A stretch of 64,000 bases of DNA from Pyrinomonadaceae bacterium. GTDB lineage: Bacteria > Acidobacteriota > Blastocatellia > Pyrinomonadales > Pyrinomonadaceae. Every line of letters starts with the position of its first letter. The first letter of the stretch is position 1. The notes beneath the pieces were generated by a model, which was not told the origin of the DNA, made no database searches, and saw only the letters and a program-made list of their open reading frames with translations. The stretch spans positions 2,679,836 through 2,743,835 of the forward strand of contig OY970256.1 of NCBI GenBank assembly GCA_963715565.1. Reading direction: 5' to 3'. Both the position numbers and the translations under genes were made by a program. Below are positions 7,949 through 57,583 of this stretch, one piece after another.

Positions 7949-7999
7949 ATTGATTCATCGGTTCATTGAATCAATGAAGAAATGAACCGATGAATCAAT
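7949..7999. repeat. unit-built hairpin, family D (octamer TGATTCAT/CGGTTCAT units)
   Basis: Arms ATTGATTCATCGGTTCATT (7949-7967) and AATGAACCGATGAATCAAT (7981-7999) are perfect complements. The hairpin fills the 59-nt gap between convergent hemB and the GH5 gene. Confidence 0.9.
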
Positions 8000-8004
8000 T
8001 CTTT

Positions 8005-9810
8005 TCATCTTATTTCTATCTCGACAGGTTTCGCGCCGCGTGCGTCGTAGCCTTCGGGCCAGTTGGAGATGTTGAGGCCGAAGGGATTGTCGGCATCCGG
8101 TTTGACGGCGAAGCTGATGTTGAGAGGTTGGCCCCTTGAGGCTCCAAGACGCACGAGCCACGAATCAATCTGCCATTCCTGAACGAGCGCCTGCCCCTTT
8201 CCCTTCTCCACGGGAACAAGACGCGAGCCGTAATCTCTGCCGTTTATCAAGAGCGTGACGCGCGTGGAGATTTCCGAAGGCTGTAATCCTTCCACCGGCA
8301 CGGGCTGGATGTGCGCGCGGACGATGATTTTCGTCACGCTCCGCCAGCCGTCCTCCCGGCGCGGCACGATGTAGGTGAAAGAGCCGACGCCGTAACCCCA
8401 GATGTAGCCCGCTCCTCGGCCAAGTTTTTCAAAGCGGCCACTCGCGGCCTGCTCGGGCGAAAACCTGTAGAGCAGCGCTCCGTCAGGCTGCGCGATTCGT
8501 TCCGGGATAATGGATGCTTCCGTTTCGGAACGCTTGAAAGCGAACTGCCTCGGGATGAGATGGCGGCGCTTGTCGAGGAGCACGGGCGGCGGCGGCCAAT
8601 CGTACTGTAAGGATTTAAAAAGCTGAGCGCCGCGACGAATCTCCGCGCGCACGCGCTCGTCATCCGGCACGTTGTAGCTAACGTTGTAATCGCGCACGGT
8701 ATCCGGCGTCCAGCGCCAGAACATCGCGCCGCTCACGCCCGCACGCGCCACGCTCTCGAAATAGGCCCGGTACCAATCGGTTTGCGAATAGCCTTTGTAA
8801 CCGTCGGGCGTCATGCCGAACTCGCCGAAGACGAGCGGCTTGCGCACCTCGAACGAAGCGGCGGCGCGGTTGTCTACAAACTCGCGCAGAGCCTGCGGTG
8901 AATCCACGTAGCTGTTGAGGTCGTCGCGCGGGTAGATGTGCACGTCGCAGTAATCTATCGTTGGAATGCGATGTTCCGCGAGCCACTCGCGGCGCTCCCA
9001 CGCCGTGCGATAACCCCACGTGCCGGGCGCGACGAGATGATTGGCATCAAGCGATTTGATAAAGCGGCTCATCTCCGCGACCCACGCGCGGCGCGCGGGC
9101 CAACCCTTCGGCGTGGCCTGCGCCTCGTTCATCAACTCGTAGCCCATGATGACGGGGTCTTCGCTGTAGAGCGTGCCGGTCACTGTGTTGCGGCGCGTGA
9201 CTATGCGGCGGACGTGCTCGCGATAAAGGGAGCGCACGCGCTCGTCCGTGTAAAAGAGCATGGCGCGCTCGACGTTGATGCCGAAGGGCTGTGTGTCGTC
9301 TGCGGCGTCCGCCAATCCCGCCCAGCGCAGATAACGCACGACGCCGCCAGTGTCGCGCCACCAGTTTGTCAAACAAATCTGCACGCGCAGATTATGACGC
9401 GCAGCTTCCGCTATGACGCGATCAAGATTGACGAAGGCGTCCTCGTTCCAATCATCAGGGCCGCGACGAAAAGGATTAAGACCGAGCCAACTGTTGCGCG
9501 CAACGCCCGTTGGTTGTGAATCGTCCGCGCCGCTCTCGCCAAAAGCCCAGAGGCGTATGACGCTCACGCCGTCGCGCCCCGCCTCGCGCATGGTGTCCGA
9601 CATATAGGCGCGTTCTTCCGTGCCGTAGATGACGGCGGCGTTCGCGCCTACAAAACGAAATGGACGACCGTTGACAAAGAAGCGTGGGCCTTGTGCGGTG
9701 ACAAACCCGCGCGGCGCACGCGCACGAGGCGCGCCCAGCTGCGTCGCAAAAAGAAGCGCCGCGCCCAACAGCAGCAGGGACGCGGCGATGAAAAACTTTC
9801 TCTTACCCAT
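8005..9810 (-). CDS. secreted glycoside hydrolase family 5-like protein with C-terminal extra domain
   Basis: Signal peptide MGKRKFFIAASLLLLGAALL. GH5-like acid/base GYELMNEA and nucleophile LVFGEFG motifs. Confidence 0.7.
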   Translation of the reverse strand: MGKRKFFIAASLLLLGAALLFATQLGAPRARAPRGFVTAQGPRFFVNGRPFRFVGANAAVIYGTEERAYMSDTMREAGRDGVSVIRLWAFGESGADDSQPTGVARNSWLGLNPFRRGPDDWNEDAFVNLDRVIAEAARHNLRVQICLTNWWRDTGGVVRYLRWAGLADAADDTQPFGINVERAMLFYTDERVRSLYREHVRRIVTRRNTVTGTLYSEDPVIMGYELMNEAQATPKGWPARRAWVAEMSRFIKSLDANHLVAPGTWGYRTAWERREWLAEHRIPTIDYCDVHIYPRDDLNSYVDSPQALREFVDNRAAASFEVRKPLVFGEFGMTPDGYKGYSQTDWYRAYFESVARAGVSGAMFWRWTPDTVRDYNVSYNVPDDERVRAEIRRGAQLFKSLQYDWPPPPVLLDKRRHLIPRQFAFKRSETEASIIPERIAQPDGALLYRFSPEQAASGRFEKLGRGAGYIWGYGVGSFTYIVPRREDGWRSVTKIIVRAHIQPVPVEGLQPSEISTRVTLLINGRDYGSRLVPVEKGKGQALVQEWQIDSWLVRLGASRGQPLNISFAVKPDADNPFGLNISNWPEGYDARGAKPVEIEIR

Positions 9811-9865
9811 TTATAAAGAACTCAAAAAAAACTTCCTGAATCAACCGCGCGTGAAAGCCCGCGCT

Positions 9866-10213
9866 TTAACTCGGATCGGTAAGCTTGACGAACCCCATGA
9901 TGGCGCACACTCCTGCCAGCACGATGAAGAGATTAAAGAAAGCTCCGACGTTGAGGCCCATGTCCGCATCGCTCACCACGGCAAAGGCGAGCAACAGAAA
10001 TTGCAGGTGATAAATAATCAGGCACACGGCGCAGAAGGCGAACCAGCGCGTCGAAGGGCCAAAGGCGCGCGCGCGTTGAAACCCGAGCACGGCGGCTATC
10101 AACCATGCCAGCACGCCCGCGATTAAGAGAATCAGTACGACGGGTAAGAAAAAGGTCGGCTGTGTGCCGCGCGTCTCGGCCTGCGCGAGCATCCAGAATA
10201 GAGCCGGAAACAT
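9866..10213 (-). CDS. hypothetical integral membrane protein (3-4 TM helices)
   Basis: 115-aa hydrophobic ORF with GAGGAG about 10 nt upstream of the ATG. Confidence 0.55.
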   Translation of the reverse strand: MFPALFWMLAQAETRGTQPTFFLPVVLILLIAGVLAWLIAAVLGFQRARAFGPSTRWFAFCAVCLIIYHLQFLLLAFAVVSDADMGLNVGAFFNLFIVLAGVCAIMGFVKLTDPS

Positions 10214-10474
10214 TCCGTTTGTTTCTCCTCGGAAAGGGATGTCCGTAGAACTTTTTGAAGTTCTCTCCTGACGAAAATAATCAAAAGCGCCGTTTGGGCT
10301 TTCGGAACAAATGGTCTCGTTCCCGAGAGCGCAAACGGCGTCAAGATTTATTCATCACGAGGTTCGAGAGCCGCCCGGAGCACCAAAAGTCTTGCGACCC
10401 ACAGGGCGACCCCCAAGCGCTTCGTTCAACACCACTCGTAGATGCAAACTTCCATCGGAGGACATCAAAGCAAA

Positions 10475-10693: not shown

Positions 10694-10981
10694 ATATTGA
10701 ACCTCCGGCGTTCGCTTGAAGATCAAAAATGATGGCTCGTAAAAGCTTCTCGCGCCTGTAATTAAGCGTCTACATGAGAACCACGTCGGGCAAACACCAT
10801 CATCCACGAAGGACGACGGCATTTCTCAATTATCTATTTCTGAGGGAGCATGTTACCGCTAAGGAAGGGTAAAGGTAAAGCGCAAAGATGCAGATTTCCG
10901 CAGAGAGGGATAAAGAAAAGCGCGGGGCCAAACCGCTCTTGCCTACTCTGGAAGCCGTTGGAAAGTGACCTACATCCGTTT

Positions 10982-11138
10982 AGCTCCGTAGGAGCAGAAT
11001 GTTTATAGCTTGATTTTCATCATCAAGAATCAAGCTCCGTAGGAGCGGCATGTGCGTCATCCCTGACATGACGCTCCTACGGAGCTTGATATGTTTTTGT
11101 CACTTGCCAGCTATAAACATCCTCGCTCCTACGGAGCT
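10982..11138. repeat. ~155-bp nested-palindrome element (REP/MITE-like), copy 1
   Basis: Outer arms AGCTCCGTAGGAGCAGAATGTTTATAGCT and AGCTATAAACATCCTCGCTCCTACGGAGCT. Inner hairpin ATCAAGCTCCGTAGGAGCG...ATGACGCTCCTACGGAGCTTGAT. Four copies of the 14-mer AGCTCCGTAGGAGC or its complement. Confidence 0.85.
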
Positions 11139-11207
11139 ACAAACAAATTACACCTTCCTCGCCGGAACTCCTAATGATTTATCGTCGCCGCGTTATCTCC
11201 GCACCTT

Positions 11208-13121
11208 TTACACGATACGGCGGCGGTCGCCCGCGCGCTGCGTGATGCGCTCGCGGTCCAGATATTCCAGAAGCGGGATGGCGTACTTGCGCGTGACATT
11301 CGCCAAATCCTTAAAAGCCGCCACGTCTATCAAACGCTCCGGCTCGTGCTCGACGGCGTAGGCGCGCAAGTCTCGGACGAGGCGGTCGAGCGCCTCGCGA
11401 TGAAACAGAAGGTCAGGCGCGACGCGCACGAGGATGCCAGCGTCCAAAAGCAGTTGCAGAATTTTGCGCCCGTGCTCGGCTTCGGTCTTTGCCCCACGGG
11501 ATGCGCGCGCGTGCGCCTCTTCAAAGGAAGGAACTTCCAGCTCCGCCTCCCTGTAAATTTCTTCCAGGCGGTCGCGCAAAGAAGCGTCTTCCCCCGAAAG
11601 CTCAAGCGTGTGCGTCGCAGAGCGCACAATCTCTTTTTCGGAGACGAGCTTTTCATCACGCTCAAGCGCGTAGAGCGCGGCGCGAAAAATTTCCGGCTGG
11701 GCGTGTGCAAAGAGACGCTCGCGCAAGGTCTCGCGCGAGAGCCCGCGCGATAAGGGCTCGCGCCTATGATGAGCCATGACTTCTTCAAGCGCGGCTTGCG
11801 CCAGCGCGTCAAAGCTCGTGCGCGACAAATACACGCCCTCCGCATCCACGACCGCGCCGCTCGCACGCGCAGCGCGCAGAGCCTCTTCCAGAACTTCATC
11901 GCGCCAGCCCGTGCGCGCCAGTAAATCCGCGCGACGCAGGCTTGTCGAAGCCGCGACGAAGGCAGCGACCTGCGCCGCCCTGTCTCCGTTCATCAAATCA
12001 GAGAGAGCTGCGCGCGTTTCTCTTATCTCGCGCCCGCGATGTTTTGTCGCCAGTGGGTCCAGCACGCGCCCGCCCGCGATGGTGTGCGAAGGCGAATAAG
12101 AACGGATGATGAAATGCTCGCCCATGAGCGTGGCGACAGGCGTTTCCAGCCGCAACTGCGCAAAGCCCGCCTCGCCCGGAGCAATCTCGCCGCCTTCTTC
12201 CAGAACGCGCACACGCGCTAAAACTTCCGCAGCTCCAAGATGCACGCGCACGCGCGAGCGTGAACGCAAACCGCGCGGCGCGCTTTTTAAGACTTCGACG
12301 CGCGCGTCCATGATTTGCGAAGGACGCAGCCGACCCGTCTGCGCCAGCACCATCCCGCGCTCAAGCTGTCCTGTTTCGACGCCTCCCAGGTTAACAGCCG
12401 TGCGCTGGCCTGCCACGGCGCGCTCAACCGCCTGCCCGTGCACCTGTAGCCCACGCACGCGCACGCGACGCTCCAAGGGCAAAAGCTCCAGCTCGTCGCC
12501 CTCGCCGATTTCGCCCGCGACGAGTGTGCCCGTTACCACCGCGCCGAAGCCGCGCATGGTAAAGGCTCTATCCACGGGCAGCCGCGCCACCGTTTCCGAA
12601 AGACGAGCAGGCGCAGCTAGAGCCACTTCGCGCAAGCTCTCCTTTAACTCCGCGAGCCCCTCGCCCGTGCGCGAGCTGACGGACAGGATGGGCGCGTCTT
12701 CGAGAAATGAATTTTTGACCAGCTCCTCTGCCTCCGCGCGAACAAGCTGAAGCAGCTCCTCGTCAACCGCGTCCCGTTTAGTGATAACGACGAGGCCCGC
12801 CTGGACGCCTAGCAGGCGGCAGATATCAAAGTGCTCGCGTGTTTGCGGCATGACGCCTTCGTCCGCCGCGATGACGAGCGCCACCAGATCAATCCCGTGC
12901 GCGCCCGCCAGCATGTTCTTCACAAACCGCTCGTGGCCCGGCACGTCCACAAAGCCTACGCGCACGTCACGAAGATCAAGCTCTGCAAACCCTAGATCAA
13001 TCGTAATCCCGCGCCGCTTTTCTTCAGGCAGGCGATCCGCGTCCACGCCCGTCAGGGCGCGCACCAGAGCAGTTTTTCCGTGGTCTATGTGACCGGCTGT
13101 GCCGACGATGATTGAACGCAT
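11208..13121 (-). CDS. selB: selenocysteine-specific translation elongation factor SelB
   Basis: GTPase motifs [16 protein letters not shown] and TKRD, followed by long winged-helix-type C-terminal domains. Start taken at [11 protein letters not shown]; the 9 upstream codons of the track ORF are read from repeat family A. Confidence 0.9.
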
Positions 13122-13203
13122 AAAAGCAATGCAAAAGTCAAAATGCAAAATGCAGAGTTAAAGAAGGTCTTTTCTTTTCATTTTGCATTTTGCACTTTGC
13201 ATT
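13122..13203. repeat. unit-built hairpin, family A (TGCAAAR heptamers)
   Basis: AAAAGCAATGCAAAAGTCAAAATGCAAAATGCAG ... TCATTTTGCATTTTGCACTTTGCATT. Directly abuts the selB start codon. Confidence 0.85.
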
Positions 13204-13320
13204 CATCATTTTCTTGTGCCTTTTATTTTACTATTTTGAAATCAATGAGCCTAATTGACGCGAGCCGTGCGGCACGGAATGTTGGACCAGAGCGGTGCAA
13301 AAGTTTCTCATCCCGTGCTT

Positions 13321-13336: not shown

Positions 13337-13427
13337 AAGCGCGTGTCCGTGTGCTGTTACGATGATGGAGGGCAGAAACCATTCACAACTGAAAATCCGA
13401 CTGTTAGTTATAGGGGAGAGGGAAAAA

Positions 13428-15342: not shown

Positions 15343-16121
15343 ACGGGCCGCGCATACTGATTGTCGAAGACGAGCAGCATCTGGCCGAAGGGCTGCGCTT
15401 TAACCTTGAGGCCGAAGGCTACATGGTCGAAATCGTGGGCGAAGGCGAAACGGCGCTGGCGCATCTTTTAGGCAAAGACAGCGACTACGACGCGGTCGTG
15501 CTCGACGTGATGCTTCCGGGCAAAGACGGCTTCAAGGTGGTTGCGGAATTGAGGGCGGCGGGGCAATTCGTGCCGGTCCTGATGCTGACGGCGCGCGGGC
15601 GTCCCGAAGATGTCTTGCGCGGCTTTGAAGCGGGCGCGGACGATTATCTTCCAAAACCTTTTGAGCTGGCGATACTGCTGGCGCGCGTGCGCGGCCTACT
15701 GCGTCGTAGAGAGTGGCTCGTGCACGAGCACGATCAGGCAACGGCTGCAAACTCGACCCTTCCATCATCAGTCAAAGAAGCGAGCGCGCCCGCGTCTTCC
15801 GCACAGAGAGGAGGCTCGTTCTCCTTTAACGGCAAGACGATTGATTTCAGCGCGCTGGAGCTGCGCACAAAAACGCGCGTCGTGCGGCTCACGTTGATGG
15901 AAGCGGAGCTGCTTCGCTTTTTAATCGAGCACGCGGAGCGCGCCGTCTCGCGCAAGGAGATGTTGGAAGAAGTCTGGAACCTGCGCGAAGACACCGACAC
16001 GCGCGCCATAGACAACTTCATCGTCCGCCTGCGCAAATACATAGAAGACGAACCCTCCAGCCCCAAACACCTCCTCACCGTCCGCGGCGTCGGCTATCGC
16101 TTCATCGCTAAACCGCAGTGA
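15339..16121 (+). CDS. OmpR/PhoB-family response regulator
   Basis: ATGA overlap with the kinase gene. Receiver VVLDVMLPGKDG...LMLTAR and winged helix LLTVRGVGYRF. There is an unusually long S/A-rich linker (HEHDQATAANSTLPSSVKEASAPASSAQRGG). Confidence 0.88.
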   Translation: MNGPRILIVEDEQHLAEGLRFNLEAEGYMVEIVGEGETALAHLLGKDSDYDAVVLDVMLPGKDGFKVVAELRAAGQFVPVLMLTARGRPEDVLRGFEAGADDYLPKPFELAILLARVRGLLRRREWLVHEHDQATAANSTLPSSVKEASAPASSAQRGGSFSFNGKTIDFSALELRTKTRVVRLTLMEAELLRFLIEHAERAVSRKEMLEEVWNLREDTDTRAIDNFIVRLRKYIEDEPSSPKHLLTVRGVGYRFIAKPQ

Positions 16122-16196
16122 CAAGTGACAAGTGACGAGTGACAAGATAAGAAGCTTTTCTCTTGCTTGTCACTTGTCACTCGTCACTTGTCACTG
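16116..16196. repeat. unit-built hairpin, family B (GTGACRA heptamers)
   Basis: 31-nt arms CAGTGACAAGTGACAAGTGACGAGTGACAAG and CTTGTCACTTGTCACTCGTCACTTGTCACTG. The response-regulator TGA stop lies inside the left arm. Fills a convergent gap. Confidence 0.9.
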
Positions 16197-16199
16197 CTC

Positions 16200-20919: not shown

Positions 20920-21360
20920 ATGCCAGAGCAGGCGAAAAAAGGCGATACGGCAAAGGTCCACTACACGGGCCGTTTGGAGAGCGGAGAGGTTTTTGATTCA
21001 TCACGCGACGGCGACCCACTGGAATTCGAGGTCGGCTCGGGACAGGTCATCGCGGGCTTTGACGAAGGCATCGAGGGCATGACGGTTGGAGATCAAAAGA
21101 CCATCGAGATCGAGCCGACGGAAGCTTACGGGCAGCGCGTCGATGCGCTCATACAATCAATCGGTCGCGAAGGCATCAAGCTCGACCGCGAGCCTGAAGT
21201 CGGCATGCGCCTCGGGCTCCAATTGCCCGACGGCAACGAGATTCCCGTCACCATCACGGAAGTCACGCCCGACTCAATCACGATTGACGCCAATCACCCG
21301 CTCGCAGGCCAGAAGCTCATCTTCGACGTCGAGCTGGTCGACGTCAAACAAGCAGCGTAA
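20920..21360 (+). CDS. slyD: FKBP-type peptidyl-prolyl isomerase with insert-in-flap domain (SlyD-like, no His-rich tail)
   Basis: KVHYTGRLESGEVFDSS, VIAGFDEGIEGM and HPLAGQKLIFDVELV motifs. GGAGGAG RBS upstream of ATG 20920. Confidence 0.85.
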   Translation: MPEQAKKGDTAKVHYTGRLESGEVFDSSRDGDPLEFEVGSGQVIAGFDEGIEGMTVGDQKTIEIEPTEAYGQRVDALIQSIGREGIKLDREPEVGMRLGLQLPDGNEIPVTITEVTPDSITIDANHPLAGQKLIFDVELVDVKQAA

Positions 21361-21446
21361 AAGCAATGCAAAGTGCAAAATGCAGAATGCAGAATGAAAA
21401 GAAAGAGCTTCTTTAATTCTGCATTTTGCACTTTGACTTTTGCATT
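21359..21446. repeat. unit-built hairpin, family A
   Basis: AAAGCAATGCAAAGTGCAAAATGCAGAATGCAGAAT ... ATTCTGCATTTTGCACTTTGACTTTTGCATT. Fills the convergent gap between slyD and the NYN gene. Confidence 0.9.
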
Positions 21447-21925
21447 TATTCTTCGTCTTCCGGCCCGACGCCGAAGTAGCGCATCCAGTCGGGCAGGTCT
21501 CCTTCGGCGACCGTGTCGTTTTCTTCGGGCGCATCTTCTCTTCCCTTTGCAGCTTCATCAAGGCGGCGTCGGAAATCACCGGAGCGCATGACCTGTGCGC
21601 CCAGTGCACGCACGTAAGCGGCGAGCGCGCGGTCGGAGGTGACGACCACGAGCGTCTTGCGCTCGCGCGAATGTTCGGCCAGTTCTTTGATGCGCTCGTC
21701 TGCGTTTGACCCGCGCGCTGCATAAAAAAGGCGCACGCCCCTGTAGGTCGAGCCGTCTGCAAAGTGCTGCTCGGGCGCGCCGTCGAACACGACCGTCACG
21801 CTCACGCGCCGCGAGCGCATGAGTTCCGCCGCTTCATTCATCAAACGACGCCGCGCCGCAGGCTTGTCCCTGTGCCAGCCCACCCTCTGCGCCATCACGT
21901 TGTTGCCGTCAACCAGGTAAGGCAT
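21446..21925 (-). CDS. NYN/PIN-like (YacP-type) predicted ribonuclease
   Basis: MPYLVDGNNV N-terminus, VVFDG and VVVTSDRAL motifs; 159 aa. Confidence 0.7.
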   Translation of the reverse strand: MPYLVDGNNVMAQRVGWHRDKPAARRRLMNEAAELMRSRRVSVTVVFDGAPEQHFADGSTYRGVRLFYAARGSNADERIKELAEHSRERKTLVVVTSDRALAAYVRALGAQVMRSGDFRRRLDEAAKGREDAPEENDTVAEGDLPDWMRYFGVGPEDEE

Positions 21926-21931
21926 AAGAGA

Positions 21932-22015
21932 ATTTTCGATTTTGGATTTGCGATTTGCGATTTAAAAGAAAAAGCTTTGTTGCTTTCTTTAAATCGCAAA
22001 TCCAAAATCGAAAAT
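21932..22015. repeat. unit-built hairpin, family F (GATTTKS heptamers)
   Basis: ATTTTCGATTTTGGATTTGCGATTTGCGATTTAAAAGAAA ... TTTCTTTAAATCGCAAATCCAAAATCGAAAAT. Lies between the nth stop and the NYN gene start. Confidence 0.85.
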
Positions 22016-22018
22016 TAC

Positions 22019-23838: not shown

Positions 23839-23920
23839 CAGTTTTCAGTTTTTAGTTTTCAGTTTTCAGAAAAGACGGGCAGGCTTGTGCTCTTTTCTGA
23901 AAACTGAAAACTAAAAACTG
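23839..23920. repeat. unit-built hairpin, family E (GTTTTCA heptamers)
   Basis: CAGTTTTCAGTTTTTAGTTTTCAGTTTTCAGAAAAG ... CTTTTCTGAAAACTGAAAACTAAAAACTG. Starts 4 nt upstream of the bshA start codon. Confidence 0.85.
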
Positions 23921-27071: not shown

Positions 27072-27161
27072 TTCGTAAATCGTAAATCGTGAATCGTAAA
27101 TAGACGAACGAGCGATAAACAGCTTTTCTCTATTTACGATTCACGATTTACGATTTACGAA
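27072..27161. repeat. unit-built hairpin, family C (CGTAAAT heptamers)
   Basis: Perfect 33-bp stem: TTCGTAAATCGTAAATCGTGAATCGTAAATAGA (27072-27104) is the exact reverse complement of 27129-27161. Convergent gap; overlaps the bshB1 stop. Confidence 0.92.
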
Positions 27162-28781: not shown

Positions 28782-29993
28782 ATGAACAAGGCACAGCGTC
28801 TCAAAAATCTTTACGCATACTTCTTCCTTCTTCTTTTCACCTTTTTACTTTTAACTTTTTCATTCGCCGTGCGCGCTGTGGATAATCGTGCGCTCCTTGA
28901 AACCGGGAGCGCGCGTCGGCTGGTGGCTCACGCGCCCGCACCTTCGGAAATCAAAATCGTCTCTTACAACATACGCTGGCGCGGTGGACAAGACCTTCAG
29001 GAGATTATCGCTCTACTGAAAAGCGACCCCGAAATAGGCGGAGCTTCCATCATCGGCTTGCAGGAAGTTGACCGCAACAAGAAGCGCACGGGCAACACCA
29101 ACACCGTGCGCTTGATGGCCGAAGCCCTGGGGATGCATTATGCGTGGGCCGCGCCTCCGCTTTCGGAGCGCACGAAGGAGACCGAAGAAGAGACGGGCGT
29201 GGCAATCCTCAGCCCTTATCCGCTGTCCGAAGTCGAGCGCATTGTGCTGCCCATCGAAGGACCGGGAGGCCGCCGCCGCGTGGCTCTAGGCGCAACCGTC
29301 CGCATCGGTGAAAAGCACGTCCGCGCCTACTCCGTACACGCAGAGACGCGCATCTCCAGCCGCAAGCGTGTAGAGCAATTTCAGGCCGTGCTCGATGATT
29401 TAAGCCGCTACACGAATGCGACGCGCGCCGTCGTCCTCGGCGATTTCAACACCGCCTGGACGCAGGACGTAGAGGACGCGACGCGCCTCTTCACACAGGC
29501 TCAATTCGAAACGCCCATCCCGAACAATAAGTCCACCTGGAGAACTTTTATCCTCGAACTCAAGCTCGACTGGATTTGGATCAAGGGTTTGCAGGCGACC
29601 GAATACGGCATAGACAAAAAGATAGGTTACTCGGACCACTGGCCGCTCTGGGTCAAGGCGCGGCTGGACGCTGGCACCTCCGGGCAGGTGGAATTTAACG
29701 GGCGCATCGCAAAGATTGAGCGCACAGACAGAGCGCAGGCCGTAGGAAGCGGAACGGAGCAAGTGCTCGGCACAATTTTGATAGAAGGCGACGGCGGCCC
29801 GAAAGCGAAATTCACAAAAGCAGACGTCACCGTGACCGCCGCGACGCGCATCCTCGTCGAAGACGACAACGCCACCCGCAACGCCTCCTTCGACGCCCTC
29901 AAAAAAGGCAAACGCGTACGCGTCCGCCTCACTACTCCCATCACGGAATCAACGCCCCTGCGAGCGACAGCAAGCGAAATCAAAGTACAGTGA
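28782..29993 (+). CDS. secreted endonuclease/exonuclease/phosphatase (EEP) family protein with C-terminal beta-rich domain
   Basis: Signal/TM at the N-terminus. EEP motifs IVSYNIRW, GLQEVD, VLGDFN and SDHWPLWV. Start is 2 nt after the MBL gene stop. Confidence 0.75.
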   Translation: MNKAQRLKNLYAYFFLLLFTFLLLTFSFAVRAVDNRALLETGSARRLVAHAPAPSEIKIVSYNIRWRGGQDLQEIIALLKSDPEIGGASIIGLQEVDRNKKRTGNTNTVRLMAEALGMHYAWAAPPLSERTKETEEETGVAILSPYPLSEVERIVLPIEGPGGRRRVALGATVRIGEKHVRAYSVHAETRISSRKRVEQFQAVLDDLSRYTNATRAVVLGDFNTAWTQDVEDATRLFTQAQFETPIPNNKSTWRTFILELKLDWIWIKGLQATEYGIDKKIGYSDHWPLWVKARLDAGTSGQVEFNGRIAKIERTDRAQAVGSGTEQVLGTILIEGDGGPKAKFTKADVTVTAATRILVEDDNATRNASFDALKKGKRVRVRLTTPITESTPLRATASEIKVQ

Positions 29994-30086
29994 AAAGCAA
30001 TGCAAAGTGCAAAGTGCAGAATGCAGAATTAAAGAAGCTCTTTCTTTTCATTTAGCATTTTGCACTTTGCACTTTGCATTGCTTTT
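29993..30086. repeat. unit-built hairpin, family A
   Basis: AAAAGCAATGCAAAGTGCAAAGTGCAGAATGCAGAAT ... TCATTTAGCATTTTGCACTTTGCACTTTGCATTGCTTTT. Spans exactly from the EEP gene stop to the permease gene stop. Confidence 0.9.
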
Positions 30087-32516: not shown

Positions 32517-32662
32517 ACAGGATGGACAGGATGGACAGGATAAGAAGAAATGATAAATGCAAAGTGCAAAGTGCAAAATTAAAGAGATTCTTTCTGTTCA
32601 TTCATCATTTTGCGTTTTGACTTTTGCATTGCTTTTATCCTGTGTATCCTGTCCATCCCTGT
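32517..32662. repeat. nested hairpin: outer nonamer (GGATGGACA) arms enclosing a family-A hairpin
   Basis: Outer arms ACAGGATGGACAGGATGGACAGGATAA (32517-32543) and TTATCCTGTGTATCCTGTCCATCCCTGT (32635-32662). Inner family-A arms at 32555-32579 and 32607-32636. Lies between the ABC ATPase stop and the permease start. Confidence 0.85.
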
Positions 32663-35916: not shown

Positions 35917-35994
35917 GCAGTGCAAAAGTCAAAATGCAAAATGCAGAATGAAAAGAAAGGGCTTCTTTAATTCATCACTTTGCACTTTGCATTT
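35917..35994. repeat. unit-built hairpin, family A
   Basis: GCAGTGCAAAAGTCAAAATGCAAAATGCAGAATGAA ... TTCATCACTTTGCACTTTGCATTT. Starts 7 nt upstream of the HlyD-family gene start. Confidence 0.85.
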
Positions 35995-36198
35995 ATCATT
36001 TCTTAGAGAGGTGGTGGAGCCTCGCCCCCAGGCCCACCACCTCATCGTCGTGAGGTGCGCAGAAGAGGGGAGACCTTCTTTCTGCGCAACGCAGTTCACG
36101 ACGCACCCAGATTGTTTTCCGTCTCGAAGAAGATGGGGACGGAAATTTCCACGCACGATTTTCGAAGCGTGCCTAGCGCTTTTAAGCGTGCTCAAATT

Positions 36199-42813: not shown

Positions 42814-42901
42814 AAGTCCCAAATCCCAAGTCCCAAATCTCAAGTCTTAAATCCCAAAATACTGTCGTTTGACTTGGGACTTTGGACTTGGGACTTGAGA
42901 C
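42814..42901. repeat. unit-built hairpin, family G (CCCAARTC-type 7-8-nt units), imperfect
   Basis: AAGTCCCAAATCCCAAGTCCCAAATCTCAAGTC ... GACTTGGGACTTTGGACTTGGGACTTGAGAC. Lies between the adaptor stop (42904) and the RND start (42805). Confidence 0.75.
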
Positions 42902-44930: not shown

Positions 44931-44952
44931 CAATATTCTCTGGCTGTGGAAA

Positions 44953-44968
44953 AAGTAAGTACTTACTT
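44953..44968. promoter_or_regulatory. perfect 16-bp palindrome, candidate TetR operator
   Basis: AAGTAAGTACTTACTT starts 23 nt upstream of the tetR start codon, in the divergent intergenic region. Confidence 0.5.
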
Positions 44969-45289
44969 ACCATCTTCGATAAACGAAGTCAAGAGGCGGG
45001 AGGTTTCATCAAATTTCAGCGCGTGGGGGCCGGAATTCGCGCGCCCAGCCTGTACTGTTCCCGACCTTTGCGCTATCTTTACTCGTACCTTTTCGCAACA
45101 AAACTGAGAGAGGGCCGCACTTGCGCCATGGCTTCCCTTCCGCGTCTTTCGCGTGTGAAGCGGGGCACAGGCGTTGTCGGCACATTGTTTGCTCGTAAGG
45201 GACGGGAACGGCCCAAGATGGCGAGCTTCTCACATGCACTTAAAAATGCTATGCGAGATTAATTTTTGATTTTAAGGAGAACGAGAAAG

Positions 45290-45724
45290 ATGTCACAGAA
45301 CTTTTCTTCAGGTGGATCGAATCAGGGACAGGGCACGACAGGCGGCTCGGGCAGCACCGGCTCGACCGGTAGCACGACGAGTTCCTCCGGTTCCACGTCG
45401 GGCGCGGGCCAGCAAGGGTTGACGCCCTCCACAGGCGGGCAGAGCGCAGGCGGCGGCGCGGGCGCTGGCACAGCCACGGGCCTTGCACAGACGGCGCAGG
45501 AATACGGCAAGAAGGTGGCCGAGGCGGCCTCGACTGCCAGGGAATTCGTCACCGACAAGGTGAGCGTCGTCGGCGACAAGATTACCGATCTGCGCAACAA
45601 GGATTTCTCAGAGGTCGCTACCGAGGCCAAAGAATATGCGCGGCAGAATCCGGGTCAGGCGCTTCTGATCTCAGCCGCCGCCGGTTTCGTCCTCGGGCTT
45701 CTCATTCGCGGAAGCCGCAGATAA
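45290..45724 (+). CDS. DUF883 (ElaB/YqjD-like) tail-anchored stress protein
   Basis: AAGGAGA RBS. G/S/T-rich N-terminus. C-terminal NPGQALLISAAAGFVLGLLIRG matches the ElaB/YqjD tail-anchor pattern. Confidence 0.7.
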   Translation: MSQNFSSGGSNQGQGTTGGSGSTGSTGSTTSSSGSTSGAGQQGLTPSTGGQSAGGGAGAGTATGLAQTAQEYGKKVAEAASTAREFVTDKVSVVGDKITDLRNKDFSEVATEAKEYARQNPGQALLISAAAGFVLGLLIRGSRR

Positions 45725-45726
45725 AA

Positions 45727-45805
45727 CAGTGACAAGTGACGAGTGACAAGTGACAAGTTAAAAGCTTGTTCCTGCTTGTCACTTGTCACTTGTCACTTGT
45801 CACTG
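45727..45805. repeat. unit-built hairpin, family B
   Basis: CAGTGACAAGTGACGAGTGACAAGTGACAAG ... CTTGTCACTTGTCACTTGTCACTTGTCACTG. Lies between the YqjD-like and YqjE-like genes. Confidence 0.9.
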
Positions 45806-45824
45806 ATTTAGGGAGGCACAAGCC

Positions 45825-46280: not shown

Positions 46281-47179
46281 CAATCGCGCGCGCGCCGGAG
46301 GCGGACGACGACATAGATTCCACGAAAGCCGAGCTTCAACGTCGTATGGAGGAGGCGCGCGAATCCATTACACAGACCGTTACGGAGATTAAGGATACAG
46401 TGGCAAACCAATATCAAGCAGTCAGGCACACGGTTACGGAAGCGTTGGACTGGCGCGAGCAGTATCGCAAACGCCCCGTGGCCTTCACGGTCGGCGCACT
46501 CTCTGCCGGATTCCTTCTAGGCTACACGGTCGCTGGCACATTCAAGGGTGACGGGTCCAGTTACGAAGAGGACTACTGGTCTATTCCTTCCGAAGAGACG
46601 GACGTGTACGCGCGCACCGGAGCAGAGCCCGCGCGGCTCGCCCAGTCGCCTTACGCAGAGCGCGGTCTGGCAAGTAGCTCGCCGCCGCAAGCCTCCACGC
46701 GTCCAACGAGCGCACATGCCTCGTCGGCCACGGGCTCTTACGGCTCGACCGCGTATCAGGCGGCTGCGCCCGTAGAGGCCGATTACAGTGATTCGTCCGC
46801 AGCGGAAGACAAGGGGCCGGGTCTCTACGCACGTTTCAAAGAGACGCGCGCTTACGACAAGCTACAGGAAGAAGTCTCCTCGCTCGGCGAACGCTTTGTA
46901 GAAGAACTGTCGGGCGTTGCGGCATCAGTGGTCTTGCCCGCGCTCTTTGGCAAGATCAAAGACCTGTTCGGCGTGGATCTTTCCAACAAGCAGCGCGGTG
47001 GCAGCGCATCGGGCGGGACATCCGCCAAAGGCGTTGCGGCAGCAGGAAGCGCGGCTTCGGCCTCGTCCGCAGGGGCTGGCGTAGGCAGCACGCGCCAGGG
47101 CGGTGCTTCTCAGAGCGGCTCGTCTTACGCCACGAGCGAGAACCGTCCCTACTCCGGCTCTACGCCAGACCAAGCGTAA
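46259..47179 (+). CDS. hypothetical membrane-anchored protein (helical N-terminus, one TM, S/A/G-rich tail)
   Basis: 306-aa ORF overlapping the previous gene by 22 nt. TM helix VAFTVGALSAGFLLGYTVAG. Third gene of the YqjD-like cluster. Confidence 0.5.
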   Translation: MAEERNLAIARAPEADDDIDSTKAELQRRMEEARESITQTVTEIKDTVANQYQAVRHTVTEALDWREQYRKRPVAFTVGALSAGFLLGYTVAGTFKGDGSSYEEDYWSIPSEETDVYARTGAEPARLAQSPYAERGLASSSPPQASTRPTSAHASSATGSYGSTAYQAAAPVEADYSDSSAAEDKGPGLYARFKETRAYDKLQEEVSSLGERFVEELSGVAASVVLPALFGKIKDLFGVDLSNKQRGGSASGGTSAKGVAAAGSAASASSAGAGVGSTRQGGASQSGSSYATSENRPYSGSTPDQA

Positions 47180-47187
47180 CGAATTTC

Positions 47188-47268
47188 GGAATGAAGAGAT
47201 TGATTCATCGGTTCATTTTTTCATTGAATCAATGAACCGATGAATCAATGAATCAATTTCTTCATTCC
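47188..47268. repeat. unit-built hairpin, family D
   Basis: Carries the same 19-nt core arms as 7949-7999 (47199-47217 and 47231-47249), plus outer pairing GGAATGAAGA/TCTTCATTCC. Confidence 0.88.
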
Positions 47269-47330
47269 GCAATCGGTTGTCTTTCGGAAGTAAAGCGATT
47301 CCGATTTCACTTCTCTTTCGAGAGGCTTTC

Positions 47331-48239
47331 ATGTCCTCGCAGGTCGCCGTCATCATCAACACCGGTTCGGGCACGGACGATAAAGAGGAGGCGCGCGAGC
47401 GTCTCACAGCTTTTTTCAAATCACGAAATTGTGACGCCAGCATCCATTGTGCGCGCGACGGTGGGGAGCTAATCCTGTTGACGCACCGTGCTGTGGAAGA
47501 GGGCGCGCAAATCATCGTCGCGGGCGGCGGCGACGGGACCATCAACGCCGTCGCGCAAGAGGTTGTAGCCACAAACCACACGCTCGGCGTGCTCCCTTTG
47601 GGGACGTTCAACCACTTCGCCAAAGACCTGCGCATCCCGCTCGATTTGGAAGAGGCCGCGCGTGTTTGCCTTGAAGGACGCACGGCACGTGTGGACGTAG
47701 GCGAAGTCAACGGGCGCATGTTTCTGAACAATTCGAGTCTGGGGCTTTACCCGAGCATCGTGCGCGAGCGTGAAAAGCTGCAAGAGCGGCTGGGCCACGG
47801 AAAATTTCGCGCCTTCATCTGGGCCGCGCTCACCGTCCTGCGCCGCTACCCTTTTCTAACGATTCGTCTGAGCACGGACGAGCGCGAGATGCTGCGCCGC
47901 ACCCCTTTTCTGTTCATAGGCAATAACGAATACGAGATGGAGAATTTCAACATCGGCTCGCGCGCCTGTCTGGATCGCGGGCTGTTGAGCATGTACATTG
48001 CGCACAGCACGGGACGTTTGGGTCTGCTGCGTCTGGGATGGCGAGCCCTCTTCGGCGGCCTCCGCGACGAAGAGGATTTCGACGCGCTGTGCACCAAAGA
48101 GATTTGGATTGAGACGCGACGACGACGTCTCAGGGTCGCAACCGACGGCGAAGTGACAATCATGCAGTCGCCCTTGCACTACCGCGTTCGCCCCGGCGCT
48201 CTGCGCGTCCGAGTTCCAAAAGTGACAAGTGACGAGTGA
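47331..48239 (+). CDS. diacylglycerol/lipid kinase family protein (YegS/BmrU-like)
   Basis: VAVIINTGSG, IIVAGGGDGTINAV and LGVLPLGTFNHFAKD motifs. The stop codon lies inside a family-B repeat. Confidence 0.8.
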   Translation: MSSQVAVIINTGSGTDDKEEARERLTAFFKSRNCDASIHCARDGGELILLTHRAVEEGAQIIVAGGGDGTINAVAQEVVATNHTLGVLPLGTFNHFAKDLRIPLDLEEAARVCLEGRTARVDVGEVNGRMFLNNSSLGLYPSIVREREKLQERLGHGKFRAFIWAALTVLRRYPFLTIRLSTDEREMLRRTPFLFIGNNEYEMENFNIGSRACLDRGLLSMYIAHSTGRLGLLRLGWRALFGGLRDEEDFDALCTKEIWIETRRRRLRVATDGEVTIMQSPLHYRVRPGALRVRVPKVTSDE

Positions 48240-48300
48240 CAAGTGACAAGCTAAAATAGCTTGCTCTTGCTCGTCACTTGTCACTCGTCACTTGTCACTG
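48220..48300. repeat. unit-built hairpin, family B
   Basis: AAGTGACAAGTGACGAGTGACAAGTGACAAG ... CTTGCTCGTCACTTGTCACTCGTCACTTGTCACTG. The lipid-kinase TGA stop (48237-48239) is inside the left arm. The right arm ends 5 nt before the next start codon. Confidence 0.9.
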
Positions 48301-48305
48301 CTTTT

Positions 48306-49199: not shown

Positions 49200-49401
49200 G
49201 CGGCGCTCCGGCCTAGCCTCGCCGCCTTGAAGTAATAGAACCAAATGTTTAGCGCCCGCCCGTCTTTTCCATAAAAATACAAATCACAGGCCGTGTGCCT
49301 CGTTGACAACGCGGTTTCGTCAGTCATAGACTCGCCATCAGACACTCAAAGGATGGGGCTCCCCCTCGAACGCTGTCGGATTCTTCAAGAGGAAACTTTT
49401 C

Positions 49402-53209: not shown

Positions 53210-53395
53210 GAATCACAAATCTCCTGAAATGATTGAGCGCGAACTCGCCCATGCCCGTAGAGCAAACAAGCGAGCTGCCTTTATTGAAGAGGTAACGCTT
53301 AATACTCTAATAAAACGCGGAAGGTTTCAAGAAGCGGCGAGACTAAAACGACTTGCTGTGAGTATGCCCTATTTCCAGCCCCTGAAAGGGGCGTG

Positions 53396-53547
53396 ATATC
53401 AGTAGCCCAGCACGTCAGTGCTGGGAACACGGCATGACCATGACGGTTAAGCCCCGTAGGGGCGACATCAATCGTATGTCGCCCCTACGGGGCTTGATAA
53501 TATTTGCTGATACATGACCCATGGCTGACGCCGTGGGCTACTGATAT
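53396..53547. repeat. ~155-bp nested-palindrome element (REP/MITE-like), copy 2
   Basis: Outer arms ATATCAGTAGCCCA...GTCAG and CTGAC...TGGGCTACTGATAT. The inner stem is a perfect 20 bp: AAGCCCCGTAGGGGCGACAT (53449-53468) with ATGTCGCCCCTACGGGGCTT (53476-53495). Confidence 0.85.
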
Positions 53548-53569
53548 GCCGCCCCTCGCGGGGCTTCCT

Positions 53570-56125: not shown

Positions 56126-56137
56126 TCTCTTAACCCC

Positions 56138-56339
56138 GGTGACAAGTGACGCGTGACAAGTGACAAGTTAAATCAGCTTGCCACATAGCCACCGTCCTTT
56201 TATCACTTAATTTTCTTATTCAATCCCATTTAGATGCACAAGGGCGCTCTTTCGCACCCTTATATTAATGTCACGCGTAAAACAAACGACGACGAAAACC
56301 TATCCTTACTTGTCACTCGTCACCTGTCACTTATCACTG
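56138..56339. repeat. family B arms separated by a ~137-nt AT-rich spacer (split or decayed copy)
   Basis: Left arm GGTGACAAGTGACGCGTGACAAGTGACAAG (56138-56167) and right arm CTTACTTGTCACTCGTCACCTGTCACTTATCACTG (56305-56339). The spacer holds arm-like fragments TTATCACTT and GTCACGCGT. Confidence 0.75.
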
Positions 56340-56343
56340 CTTT

Positions 56344-57477
56344 TCACAGCTTTCTCACAAAACATTTACCGGGCAACTGGCGCACTAGCTCTCTCATTTC
56401 AAGCGCCAGCAGCGCGCTCATTAATTCCGGCAAAGCGAGCCCGGAAGCCTGCGCGAGCGCATCAATATGCACGCCTGCATCCACGGAAAGCAACTTCCAG
56501 ACGGCGTGCTCTGCGGTTGAGAGGTCGCCCGGCACAAGCTCAAGCTGTTGGCCCAGCGCGTCCTCGTCCGTCGTCTTTTTAGACTCGGGCGGCAAGAGCC
56601 GCGCAGCCACGTCGGGAGGCAACTCAGCCGCGACGTCCTGCCATTGCTGCACGAGTTTCGCGCCCGCGCCCTTGATGAGATAGTTCGTCCCGAAAGAGTT
56701 TCTAGAAGTGATGTTGCCCGGCACGGCAAACACTTCGCGTCCCTGTTCAAGAGCCAGACGCGCCGTTATCAAAGAGCCGCTCGATTCCGCCGCCTCTACA
56801 ATCACGACGCCGAGGCTCAAGCCGCTAATAACGCGATTGCGATACGGAAAGTTCTGCGGCGCGGGCGGCGTCTCCAATGGAAACTCGGAAACGAGCGCGC
56901 CGCCGTGCTCTAAAATCTCGTCCGCAAGCCGCCGGTGGTCGCGCGGGTAAACCTGGTCCAGCCCGGTTCCCATCACAGCCGCCGTGCGGCCTCCGGCTTC
57001 AATCGCGCCGCGATGCGCCGCCGCGTCAATCCCACGCGCAAGGCCCGAGATAATCGTCACGCCGCGTTCTGCCAGATCGCGCGCCAGCATAGTGGCAGCG
57101 TTCTGCCCGTAGGTGGAGGAGCGGCGCGAGCCTACAATCGCCACGCACGGCTCGTCCAGACACGCGGCCCACTCGCCCTTCACGTACAACGTAATCGGCG
57201 GGTCAAAGATCTCGCGCAGGAGCGCAGGGTACACACCGTCGTCCAACAGCAAGAGGTCCGCACCCAGAGAGCGCACGCGCAATATCTCTGCTGCGGCGCG
57301 CTCGAAGAGTTCGCGCGCCATGATGCTCTCGACCGCTTCCGGACGAAGACGCAAGGCTTCAAGCTCCATGCGCGTCGCACTGAAAACAGATTCGGCAGAG
57401 CCGAAACGTTCAAGGAGCTTGGTGGCTGCGCGCGGCCCCACGCCCGGCGTCATGTTGAGCGCAATCCATTCTTTCAT
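56344..57477 (-). CDS. dprA: DNA-processing protein DprA (Smf)
   Basis: GLARGIDAAAHRGAIEAGG Rossmann-like motif. Start taken at ATG 57477 (MKEWIALN). The TTG-initiated extension to 57552 runs through repeat sequence next to tRNA-Sec. Confidence 0.85.
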   Translation of the reverse strand: MKEWIALNMTPGVGPRAATKLLERFGSAESVFSATRMELEALRLRPEAVESIMARELFERAAAEILRVRSLGADLLLLDDGVYPALLREIFDPPITLYVKGEWAACLDEPCVAIVGSRRSSTYGQNAATMLARDLAERGVTIISGLARGIDAAAHRGAIEAGGRTAAVMGTGLDQVYPRDHRRLADEILEHGGALVSEFPLETPPAPQNFPYRNRVISGLSLGVVIVEAAESSGSLITARLALEQGREVFAVPGNITSRNSFGTNYLIKGAGAKLVQQWQDVAAELPPDVAARLLPPESKKTTDEDALGQQLELVPGDLSTAEHAVWKLLSVDAGVHIDALAQASGLALPELMSALLALEMRELVRQLPGKCFVRKL

Positions 57478-57550
57478 GATTTCAGACTTTCGCTTTTTGG
57501 ATTCAAGACAGGGTTCCGGATTGTGAGGCGCAATCCTTATCTCTTCAGAC

Positions 57551-57583
57551 AATCCAAAATCGAAAATCTAAAATCCAAAATCG
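57551..57583. repeat. tandem heptamers (AATCNAA x4.7) without a full partner arm
   Basis: AATCCAA AATCGAA AATCTAA AATCCAA AATCG lies immediately 3' of tRNA-Sec (as GATTTTN on the tRNA strand). The unit is related to family F. Confidence 0.8.

Follow-up and report, generated by a model that had tools for sequence, protein, structure and literature searches.

Tandem-heptamer hairpins at gene boundaries of Pyrinomonadaceae and in phage contigs, with unit sequences that change faster than their flanks

Tandem heptamer repeats were first described in cyanobacteria in 1990, where the named units of these short, tandemly repeated, repetitive stretches of DNA (STRRs) include CCCCAGT, TTGGTCA and CAACAGT. 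Vioque reportedly described in 1997 that STRRs lengthen a helix of RNase P RNA, and Jackman and Mulligan are said to have found in 1995 'highly variable but structured' nif intergenic regions among closely related Anabaena strains. In filamentous cyanobacteria, the 7-bp repeats form intergenic hairpins, including between hupS and hupL, and roles in transcript stability, translational coupling and termination have been proposed for them (PMC2670836); the repeats of cyanobacteria have been tabulated (PMC2408588). Xanthomonas genomes contain GGGAATC arrays with 70–75 convergent (inverted) pairs per genome, which are potential stem-loops and 89–93% intergenic (Rehm et al. 2015, PMC4692102). The open reading frame (ORF) upstream of these arrays is much nearer (28 nt on average) than the downstream one, and the arrays lie mostly between the same genes in two species and vary extensively in length and sequence (PMC4692102). 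Geobacter metallireducens has a multicopy element with four tandem heptanucleotide repeats as well as 15 sites of five, forming strand-switching palindromes (PMC2700814). As cited in PMC4679880 and PMC4692102, no other long simple repeats of prokaryotes are reported to be as over-represented as heptamers (Mrazek 2007). In this study, we analyzed a population of long intergenic hairpins with arms of tandem, mostly 7-nt units in a 64,000-nt stretch of DNA, in the following called the window, from a Pyrinomonadaceae bacterium (Acidobacteriota; GenBank assembly GCA_963715565.1, contig OY970256.1, positions 2,679,836 to 2,743,835). Comparison with relatives revealed that the position, size and pairing of these hairpins persist, and that their unit sequences are rewritten much faster than the flanking DNA mutates.

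Repetitive extragenic palindromic (REP) elements, known from enterobacteria and pseudomonads, stabilize upstream mRNA and lower expression when located within about 15 nt of a stop codon; REP elements and the related bacterial interspersed mosaic elements (BIMEs) bind gyrase and integration host factor (IHF). The Correia/NEMIS elements in Neisseria are processed by RNase III and can affect expression, and the early mRNA of phage T7 contains intercistronic RNase III sites, i.e. double-stranded RNA hairpins of at least 20 bp between cistrons. REP doublets forming hairpins (REPINs) have a length of about 100 nt (PMC3116915, PMC3733652), and elements similar to Correia/NEMIS are discussed in PMC4853749. 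A preliminary description of the window, made from the letters alone, had assigned the hairpins to no described element class. Given the precedents, i.e. the cyanobacterial STRR hairpins, the Xanthomonas GGGAATC arrays, the Geobacter heptanucleotide palindromes and REP/REPIN elements, the class is not new, and this assignment had to be given up.

Hairpins and arrays in the window were searched by an inverted-repeat scan and by Tandem Repeats Finder, followed by folding of each locus. In addition, a custom detector was used for arrays with a period of 5–12 nt and a reverse-complement partner at most 300 nt away. About 0.45 Mb of bacterial sequence and about 2.1 Mb of viral loci were scanned. 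All 15 loci listed in the preliminary description were recovered by the inverted-repeat scan, Tandem Repeats Finder and folding, and they amount to 16 hairpins, one of them nested, plus an additional one-armed array (Table 1). The picture of two loci was refined: at 32555, the family A copy (TGCAAAR units) is present and lies nested within the loop of the nonamer hairpin, and at 56138, the family B copy (GTGACRA units) is present with its arms parted by a 138-nt insert. Each locus folds as a single long hairpin with energies of −20 to −72 kcal/mol, with strong folds for the CGTAAAT hairpin at 27072–27161 (−56 kcal/mol), the GTGACAA hairpin at 45722–45810 (−59 kcal/mol) and the TGCAAAG hairpin at 29993–30086 (−58 kcal/mol). 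The custom detector found 28 periodic arrays in the window compared to 2.7 in block shuffles, and no hairpin was obtained in 50 trials with the block-shuffled window. With five copies of family A, which are only about 75% alike and share an asymmetric loop, and four copies of family B in 64 kb, the loci form one population of periodic-armed intergenic hairpins with several unit sequences and without a single REP consensus, as had been proposed.

About 15 of the 34 intergenic gaps of at least 50 nt in the window hold a hairpin, and all five convergent gaps of 59–91 nt are filled by one. The neighboring genes named in the preliminary description (ALAD/GH5, FKBP/NYN and EEP/ABC-2 permease) were verified by Pfam. 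Its observation that ORFs read through into the hairpins was also correct, as illustrated by the selB ORF, which begins with MHFDFCIAF upstream of the true start. Because of the hairpins, starts and stops of genes are called with systematic errors, and assemblies from short reads are probably interrupted at them.

Related loci were identified with the protein adjoining three of the hairpins, resulting in 23 loci (L001–L023) from Pyrinomonadaceae/Blastocatellia (Acidobacteriota subdivision 4) with 41–68% identity. Together with the window, these 24 genomes provided 432 kb with 73 hairpins, i.e. about 2 per 10 kb, and hairpins were found in nearly all relatives with sufficient sequence. The projected copy number is at least 1,200 hairpins per genome. 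The unit length is 7 nt in 64 of the 73 hairpins, 8 nt in eight and 9 nt in one. Three are located inside genes, the remainder being intergenic.

For three sites of the window, S1 (42814), S2 (45722) and S3 (48220), most relatives possess a corresponding hairpin in the same intergenic gap, built there from other sets of unit sequences, here called unit alphabets. At S1, a periodic hairpin with differing alphabets was found in 12 relatives. At S2, a long hairpin is kept in about 19 of 21 genome loci collected without bias and spanning family-level divergence; eight further S2 sites from metagenomes all had a hairpin, in a search that demanded a gap of 75–105 nt and was therefore biased. The distance from the stop codon to the Shine-Dalgarno sequence at S2 is 80–107 nt, and GGAGG is unpaired in every genome. 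An in-register alignment was obtained for thirteen S2 hairpins that comprise five alphabets and have four heptads in each arm. In these 13 hairpins, RNAalifold predicted 27 pairs, of which 17 were changed on both sides, and 92.3% of the alignment cells were paired compared to 83.3% in shuffles and 29–60% in slid controls. The pairing measures were reached by none of 500 shuffles. Site, size (about four units per arm) and pairing outlast the unit sequence. The alphabets had been described as separate families; this view is not supported, as orthologous sites hold different alphabets in different genomes that align in register.

Units with a rotational distance of at most 1 made up 21% of the comparisons when one site was compared between genomes and 13% when different sites of one genome were compared, in contrast to a baseline of 5% for unrelated pairs and 1.5% for random 7-mers. 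This pattern indicates that site history, exchange within the genome and a restricted pool of units each contribute.

The pace of the changes became apparent from two close relatives. One is represented by a contig of a metagenome-assembled genome at NCBI (L287), which is 94.7% identical to window positions 43474–49854, the other by a 229-kb contig at ENA (L288–L291), which is 94–97% identical to most of the window. In the ENA contig, hemB (ALAD; L288 11866–12845) is called as four fragments, which suggests frameshift errors of long reads; single-base insertions or deletions in this contig call for caution. The differences between hairpins described in this work either are large or were confirmed by the independent contig L287. 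At S2, the three genomes show three distinct states. In L287, each of the four heptads differs from the window together with its pairing partner and in the same register, with GTGATGA/GTGCAGA in the 5′ arm instead of GTGACAA/GTGACGA, and the flanks are identical right up to the hairpin. Within the window, the 5′ arms of S2 and S3 match at 30 of 30 positions including the order of the unit variants, which points to copying from a locus 2.5 kb away.

Replaced alphabets were found at three further sites. At 21356, the relative carries a B-type hairpin with a perfect stem of about 46 bp (−72 kcal/mol) between flanks of 98–99% identity, the hairpin at 29993 is built there of CGGATTG/CGGAATG units and that at 35917 of TCAGGAT units. 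CGGAATG is a lineage-specific alphabet present at two sites in the relatives: at 47178, a CGGAATG seed in the outer stem was amplified to 3–4 units on both arms in both close relatives, and the inner 8-mer palindrome is without its left arm. The 300-nt flanks of replaced hairpins are 94–99% identical, those of S2 98% and 100%, and the sequences around unchanged hairpins show the same level of conservation. Homologous recombination importing divergent DNA was therefore rejected as an explanation of the swaps. Also, the view of the alphabets as fixed families is not supported, because they are swapped within conserved flanks between genomes of about 96% identity and a new alphabet can be amplified from a stem seed. 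In conserved hairpins, point substitution is not raised, and the quick changes affect whole units, mirror one arm onto the other or resemble cassettes. At a fixed site, the alphabet is thus rewritten much faster than the flanking DNA mutates, arms lengthen and shorten by whole units, and sequence moves between loci. Genomes of 94–97% identity which differ almost solely at their hairpins are natural experiments exposing the mutational mechanism.

One arm appears to template the other, and arms with mixed unit variants are perfect mirror images. Five units can be ordered in a chain of single changes (GTGACAA, GTGATAA, GTGATGA, GGGATGA, AGGATGA), and a purely stepwise drift of alphabets in situ was considered; it is weakened by the wholesale replacement and the copying between loci seen in close relatives. 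At 23839, the hairpin in the ENA relative (L289 2481–2562, about 97% identical) differs in the arms by one substitution, and its 16-nt loop is the exact reverse complement of that in the window. This loop reversal is a flip-flop inversion across the hairpin arms, and both loop isomers may coexist in populations.

Further sites differ between the window and the relative of about 96% identity to various degrees. At 21931, the relative has no hairpin and contains 5.6 kb of additional genes at this junction (window 21929–22012 compared to L289 4389–9997), so that hairpin F marks the breakpoint of an insertion or deletion; the extra DNA encodes a 1249-aa TPR protein and a 395-aa protein. At 27072, merely a sequence similar to the 3′ arm is present within irregular 133 nt, which indicates that hairpin C was recently gained or lost. 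The degenerate array at 28818–28860 is probably a remnant, and the relative carries a hairpin of 8-mers (GGAGACGC) at this site. The inner 5′ arm of the nested hairpin at 32555 is shorter by one 7-nt unit (TGCAAAG) in the relative, and at 16115 the variant unit CGA is located one register over, resulting in a perfect stem there. The hairpin at 7936 is kept except for three adjacent substitutions which convert one unit, S3 is 97–99% identical in the close relatives and the one-armed array at 57551 is identical. At 13122, a hairpin of the A type is present in the relative as well. The split hairpin at 56138 and its insert are also kept, with 221 of 224 aligned columns identical. The insert (56170–56307) had no match elsewhere in the window or in the fetched loci. 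A small hairpin of GC-rich sequence (AAGGGCGC...GCACCCTT) is located in the insert, which may represent a remnant, a promoter or a small RNA.

The hairpins have a median of 33 paired bases over a span of 88 nt, forming palindromes of about 60–100 bp with arms of 3–5 tandem units. Their fold energies extend from −21 kcal/mol down to values well under −70 kcal/mol. Their GC content is 41% compared to 57.7% overall, and the centers are A/T-rich. The 5′ arms consist of 32% A, 29% T, 27% G and 11.5% C, a composition independent of the strand, because the 5′ arm of a palindrome reads alike on both strands. Accordingly, the 5′ arm is strongly C-poor and the 3′ arm G-poor, and the viral set described below has a similar purine-rich bias. 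Between tandem genes, a median of about 3 nt separates the upstream stop codon from the hairpin, and about 18 nt lie between the hairpin and the next start codon. At S2 of the window, the stem has the stop codon TAA at its base and leaves GGGAGG, the Shine-Dalgarno sequence, unpaired. Based on gene calls which in the relatives are simple longest-ORF calls, 48 of 213 tandem, 11 of 57 convergent and 11 of 51 divergent gaps are occupied, i.e. about 20% each. S1 lies within MFP-RND efflux genes, S2 between a DUF883 and a holin-X gene and other copies among phage morphogenesis genes, all of which are probable operons.

Some further roles were considered and dropped. A device providing stop codons in three frames by a stop-bearing 7-nt unit was rejected, since 41% of the 5′-arm units hold a stop codon compared to 53% expected from the composition. 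Promoter arrays, based on 3′-arm motifs such as TTGTCA and TTGCAT resembling −35 hexamers, were dismissed because most alphabets are without such a motif. A single sequence-specific binding protein was also discarded, as most alphabets share no motif of this kind.

Viral contigs were scanned with the family A and family B unit patterns and a Nostoc-type unit. The scan recovered many contigs of high GC content (0.60–0.70) with several hairpins in different alphabets, and some of them have a hairpin at most gene junctions, one such contig being compact. Hairpins at gene junctions were found in L067, L083, L178, L205 and L200, of which only L067 has a phage protein annotation. As L038 encodes a capsid protein and L067 a virion-morphogenesis protein, these two are genuine phage sequences. 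L067 (1648–5836) has six hairpins in five alphabets among morphogenesis genes on the minus strand that span 6.5 kb. Two viral contigs that carry no annotation, L178 and L205, contain 5–6 near-identical hairpins of AATGCAG units each, with loops resembling that of family A of the window. The hairpins of L067, L178 and L205 suggest, from sequence likeness, host–phage exchange or a shared signal. The Nostoc-type unit TTGTCAG occurs three times in tandem in high-GC viral contigs bearing similar hairpins. Homologues of a phage peptidase provided no usable host taxonomy for the hairpin-bearing phage contigs. In four low-GC viral contigs (L034, L041, L059 and L085; GC 0.32–0.38), GTGACGA/GTGACAA arrays are present as inverted pairs about 120–150 nt apart; these have a different architecture and clearly belong to a different host lineage. 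The copies at phage gene junctions suggest a shared expression signal or an unusually invasive element.

We tentatively favor, with somewhat less than even confidence, the view that these elements are REP-like extragenic palindromes of the tandem-heptamer (STRR) type which are made by slippage and templating and probably act as RNA hairpins marking cistron ends. Replication slippage in 7-nt steps, which has been proposed for prokaryotic heptamer repeats generally according to citations in PMC4679880 and PMC4692102, probably drives the rewriting, and template switching within a palindrome and between hairpins would contribute. Selection would retain stable hairpins at the borders between genes. 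Such a hairpin would form in the mRNA about 3 nt past the stop codon and leave the next ribosome-binding site free, most likely serving as a REP-like element or an intercistronic RNase III site, i.e. as a barrier to 3′-exonucleases or as a processing or pause site. It would thereby set the relative expression of the adjoining cistrons and might insulate both directions in convergent gaps. Such a function is the most likely one in view of the position, the persistence and the presence at phage gene junctions. Structure and position fit an intercistronic RNase III site, for which the hairpins are candidates. A search of Rfam 15 gave no match at the gathering score; sub-threshold matches were merely to models of eukaryotic microRNA precursors, which are generic long hairpins. 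If transcript mapping showed an effect, this would be a major, so far undescribed gene-expression feature of a widespread soil phylum.

At the RNA level, RNAfold gave a more stable sense strand in 28 compared to 19 hairpins (p = 0.048) with 134 compared to 96 G-U pairs, and S2 alone has 28 G-U and 10 A-C cells. Several observations weigh against a selected RNA hairpin. With a strand-neutral fold of 48 hairpins in tandem context, the sense-strand mismatches were 40 of G-U type and 35 of A-C type, and in the viral set 30 and 36, respectively. Neutral transitions would be expected to result in such a ratio of about 1:1, the sense strand has a marginal energy advantage, and there is no robust sign of selection for pairing in the sense transcript. 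The compensatory pattern at S2 can therefore stem from arm-to-arm templating and is no proof of a functional RNA. Indeed, compensatory changes could arise from such templating alone without selection for pairing, and the persistence of sites could result from preferential insertion or conversion into existing hairpins. At odds with a role at 3′ ends, divergent gaps are occupied as often as the others. Moreover, two Pfam-verified divergent copies adjoin start codons, one directly at the selB ATG and one 5 nt from that of the glycosyltransferase gene, leaving no room for a ribosome-binding site.

The main rival to a role at cistron ends is a selfish element homing into hairpins. In this case, self-propagating palindromes of REPIN/MITE type without a host role would spread into existing hairpins or to the ends of genes, either by gene conversion or with the help of a transposase whose gene lies elsewhere, and sites would remain occupied because hairpins are the preferred target and not because they are useful. 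We regard this as unlikely, with a probability that is still appreciable. The about equal occupancy of the three gap orientations, the strand-symmetric mismatch spectrum, the dispersal of families A and B with the common loop of family A, the nested and split copies, the cassette-like replacement within conserved flanks, the spread of CGGAATG to two sites in the relatives and the occurrence in phage contigs all agree with it. On the other hand, a Pfam scan of 30 window proteins revealed no Y1 transposase or REP-associated tyrosine transposase (RAYT), the window being 64 kb of a 6.27-Mb genome. Regarding hallmarks of transposable elements of the miniature inverted-repeat type (MITEs), no target-site duplication was found at the ends of family A and B copies, and the relatives show replacement or remnants and not clean empty sites. 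Replacement does not lengthen the element, as seen from the S2 gap of 80–107 nt, and the occupancy of S2 in nearly all genomes across family-level divergence also fits a selfish element less well, as does the compact phage contig with hairpins at most gene junctions. Since the family A copies of the window are so divergent and no near-identical full-length donor was seen for the replaced sites, these are not simple recent copy-and-paste events. A role at the level of DNA is distinctly unlikely. Like the REP/BIME elements with gyrase and IHF, the AT-rich palindromes might attract proteins that recognize DNA structure, or they might be extruded as cruciforms, and thereby relieve or insulate transcription-driven supercoiling between genes. 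The strand-symmetric design without a preference for G-U over A-C mismatches would fit, as would the irrelevance of gap orientation, including divergent gaps where negative supercoils are expected to accumulate, the low GC content (41% compared to 58% for the genome) with A/T-rich centers, and the perfect arms and the flipped loop, which indicate arm exchange in DNA. Loops of 8–25 nt and frequent mismatches disfavor cruciform extrusion, and the tight placement 3 nt past the stop codon with the ribosome-binding site spared would be left unexplained.

A terminator function had been implied by the preliminary description. Ordinary factor-independent terminators, bidirectional in convergent gaps, would account for the five filled convergent gaps of the window, and some copies have a base of the type AAAAGC...GCTTTT. 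It would also fit that canonical terminator-like sites in the window (32 and 26) are not clearly above the shuffle level of 22.9 ± 4.4. A T-run of at least 4, stem base included, occurs in 15% of the tandem-context copies and is more common (32%) in convergent and divergent gaps. A U-tract is lacking in general: after the stem or at its base, T-runs are present in 12–15% of the tandem-context copies, and the 8 nt past the stem contain 2.4 T on the sense strand compared to 2.9 on the antisense strand. Based on these counts, both outside the stem and at its base, canonical intrinsic terminators were rejected, and the hairpins do not belong to this type. The stems are also AT-rich with 25–45 bp instead of short and GC-rich, and hairpins lie within probable operons and in divergent gaps beside start codons, which are as often occupied as others. 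We therefore consider the terminator explanation very unlikely. A more far-reaching idea, which we regard as quite improbable, is a self-renewing gene-boundary element common to a bacterial lineage and phages. Units of 7 nt would be written by some mechanism, dedicated or intrinsic to a polymerase, which would also add their mirror image in the other arm and thereby continually regenerate stable palindromes at fixed sites. Host and phages would use these as a sequence-independent punctuation for operon expression or DNA topology. If true, this would be a new way to maintain a cis-element, by templated rewriting instead of sequence conservation.

Table 1. Positions, units and gene context of the periodic-armed hairpins and arrays in the window.
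Feature	Coordinates	Units and structure	Gene context
D1	7936..8004	8-nt units TGATTCAT/CGGTTCAT	fills 59-nt gap between convergent hemB (ALAD) and GH5 genes
A1	13122..13210	TGCAAAR units	divergent gap; ends directly at selB ATG (minus strand)
B1	16115..16197	GTGACRA units	between convergent response-regulator gene and 717-aa gene
A2	21356..21455	TGCAAAR units	between convergent FKBP (slyD-like) and NYN genes
F	21931..22016	GATTTKS units; 26/26 perfect core	between two minus-strand genes, 5 nt upstream of NYN start
E	23839..23920	CAGTTTT units; 30/30 perfect	divergent gap, 5 nt upstream of GT4 glycosyltransferase start
C	27072..27161	CGTAAAT/CGTGAAT units; 33/33 perfect	convergent gap
Degenerate array	28818..28860	pyrimidine-rich 7-nt units, TACTTTT-like	
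A3	29993..30086	41-nt arms, 90% complementary	fills convergent EEP/ABC-2 permease gap
Nonamer outer hairpin	32517..32658	9-nt units GGATGGACA; A4 (32555-32630) nested in loop	
A5	35917..35995	weaker stem, −20 kcal/mol	between minus-strand genes
G (site S1)	42814..42901	CCCAART units	minus-strand efflux operon, between HlyD-type membrane-fusion gene and next 1109-aa gene
B2 (site S2)	45722..45810	GTGACRA units	between DUF883 gene and holin-X-family gene
D2	47178..47278	inner 8-mer palindrome and outer stem CGGAATGAAGA/TCTTCATTCCG	
B3 (site S3)	48220..48299		between DAG-kinase-like and metallophosphoesterase genes; ATG of the latter directly after GCTTTT
B4	56138..56340	split arms 56138-56169 and 56308-56340; 138-nt insert between	
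One-armed array	57551..57582	AATCYAA heptamers; T-rich	directly 3′ of tRNA-Sec (minus strand)

Apart from the periodic-armed hairpins, the window contains a second, conventional palindrome family, AAGCTCCGTAGGAGC/AAGCCCCGTAGGGGC, with GTAG at the center (10959–11140 and 53449–53495). Four copies form two inverted pairs in the gap 10822–11208, and a perfect 20-bp stem is present at 53449–53495. In appearance, it is a classic REP/REPIN family present alongside the hairpins of heptamers. The palindrome at 53449–53495 is flanked by two inverted matches to the Acido-Lenti-1 RNA at 53377–53425 (minus strand) and 53518–53565 (plus strand), one of which scores 39 bits (above the gathering score of 37) and the other 35 bits (just below), and the surrounding 360-nt gap is highly structured (−124 kcal/mol over 200 nt). 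The occurrence of Acido-Lenti-1 RNA agrees with an origin of the window from Acidobacteriota. In the first 20 kb, positions 6116–6896 are the sole long stretch not aligning to the relative of 96–97% identity; it contains a tRNA-Met (6248–6323) and a PD-(D/E)XK endonuclease gene (6282–6746, minus strand) and may be a small insertion beside a tRNA. Components of the selenocysteine machinery in the window are selB (11208–13121, minus strand) and tRNA-Sec (57587–57685, minus strand).

Among the known systems, the elements share with STRRs the 7-bp tandem intergenic units in at least three copies, the presence of several unit sequences per genome and the formation of hairpins between cistrons. In contrast to STRRs, the paired hairpin is the rule here, whereas STRRs were mostly described as direct arrays; the named STRR units are absent from the unit set found here, the host belongs to the Acidobacteriota (Pyrinomonadaceae) and is not a cyanobacterium, and the AT-rich elements lie in a genome of high GC content, with further copies in phage contigs. 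We know of no STRR report of rewriting confined to hairpins, loop inversion or such compensatory change. With the Xanthomonas arrays, they have in common convergent pairs near the upstream ORF, at conserved positions and with variable sequence. The Xanthomonas arrays consist of one G-rich unit and were studied as G-quadruplex formers, whereas here many G-poor or AT-rich units are used, with which no quadruplex is possible; GGG runs occur only in a few units, e.g. GGGATGA in some relatives. The hairpins described here are also denser, with about one per 4–5 kb. The Geobacter palindromes were interpreted as regulator-binding sites or regulatory RNAs and differ by few copies and fixed units, and no evolutionary analysis accompanied them.

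The resemblance to REP, BIME and REPIN elements includes extragenic palindromes at gene ends and inside operons, hundreds of copies and the lack of a U-tract. The genome-specific consensus of REP elements, i.e. their concerted evolution, has a counterpart in the 13% similarity of units within a genome compared to 5% for unrelated pairs. However, no GTAG/CGTC tag is present in the periodic-armed hairpins, the ends of which vary (AAAAGCA..., CAGTG... and others), their arms are tandem repeats instead of a single imperfect palindrome of 20–40 bp, and many alphabets are used instead of one to three consensus sequences. Correia/NEMIS elements and MITEs are likewise long intergenic hairpins of about 100 nt, and those elements are co-transcribed with neighboring genes; MITEs differ by their non-periodic arms and by having defined inverted repeats at the termini, duplications of the target site and an insertion sequence as parent, and nothing of the latter kind was found here. 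As in phage T7, hairpins predicted to form double-stranded RNA are placed between consecutive cistrons, phage genomes included, whereas the T7 sites are neither periodic nor DNA-palindromic nor hypervariable. Our literature search found no description of these elements in Acidobacteria. In comparison with all these systems, several features appear to be new, namely the phylum of the host, the hairpin as the dominant form, how many alphabets there are, the occurrence in phage contigs and the direct evidence of hairpin evolution.

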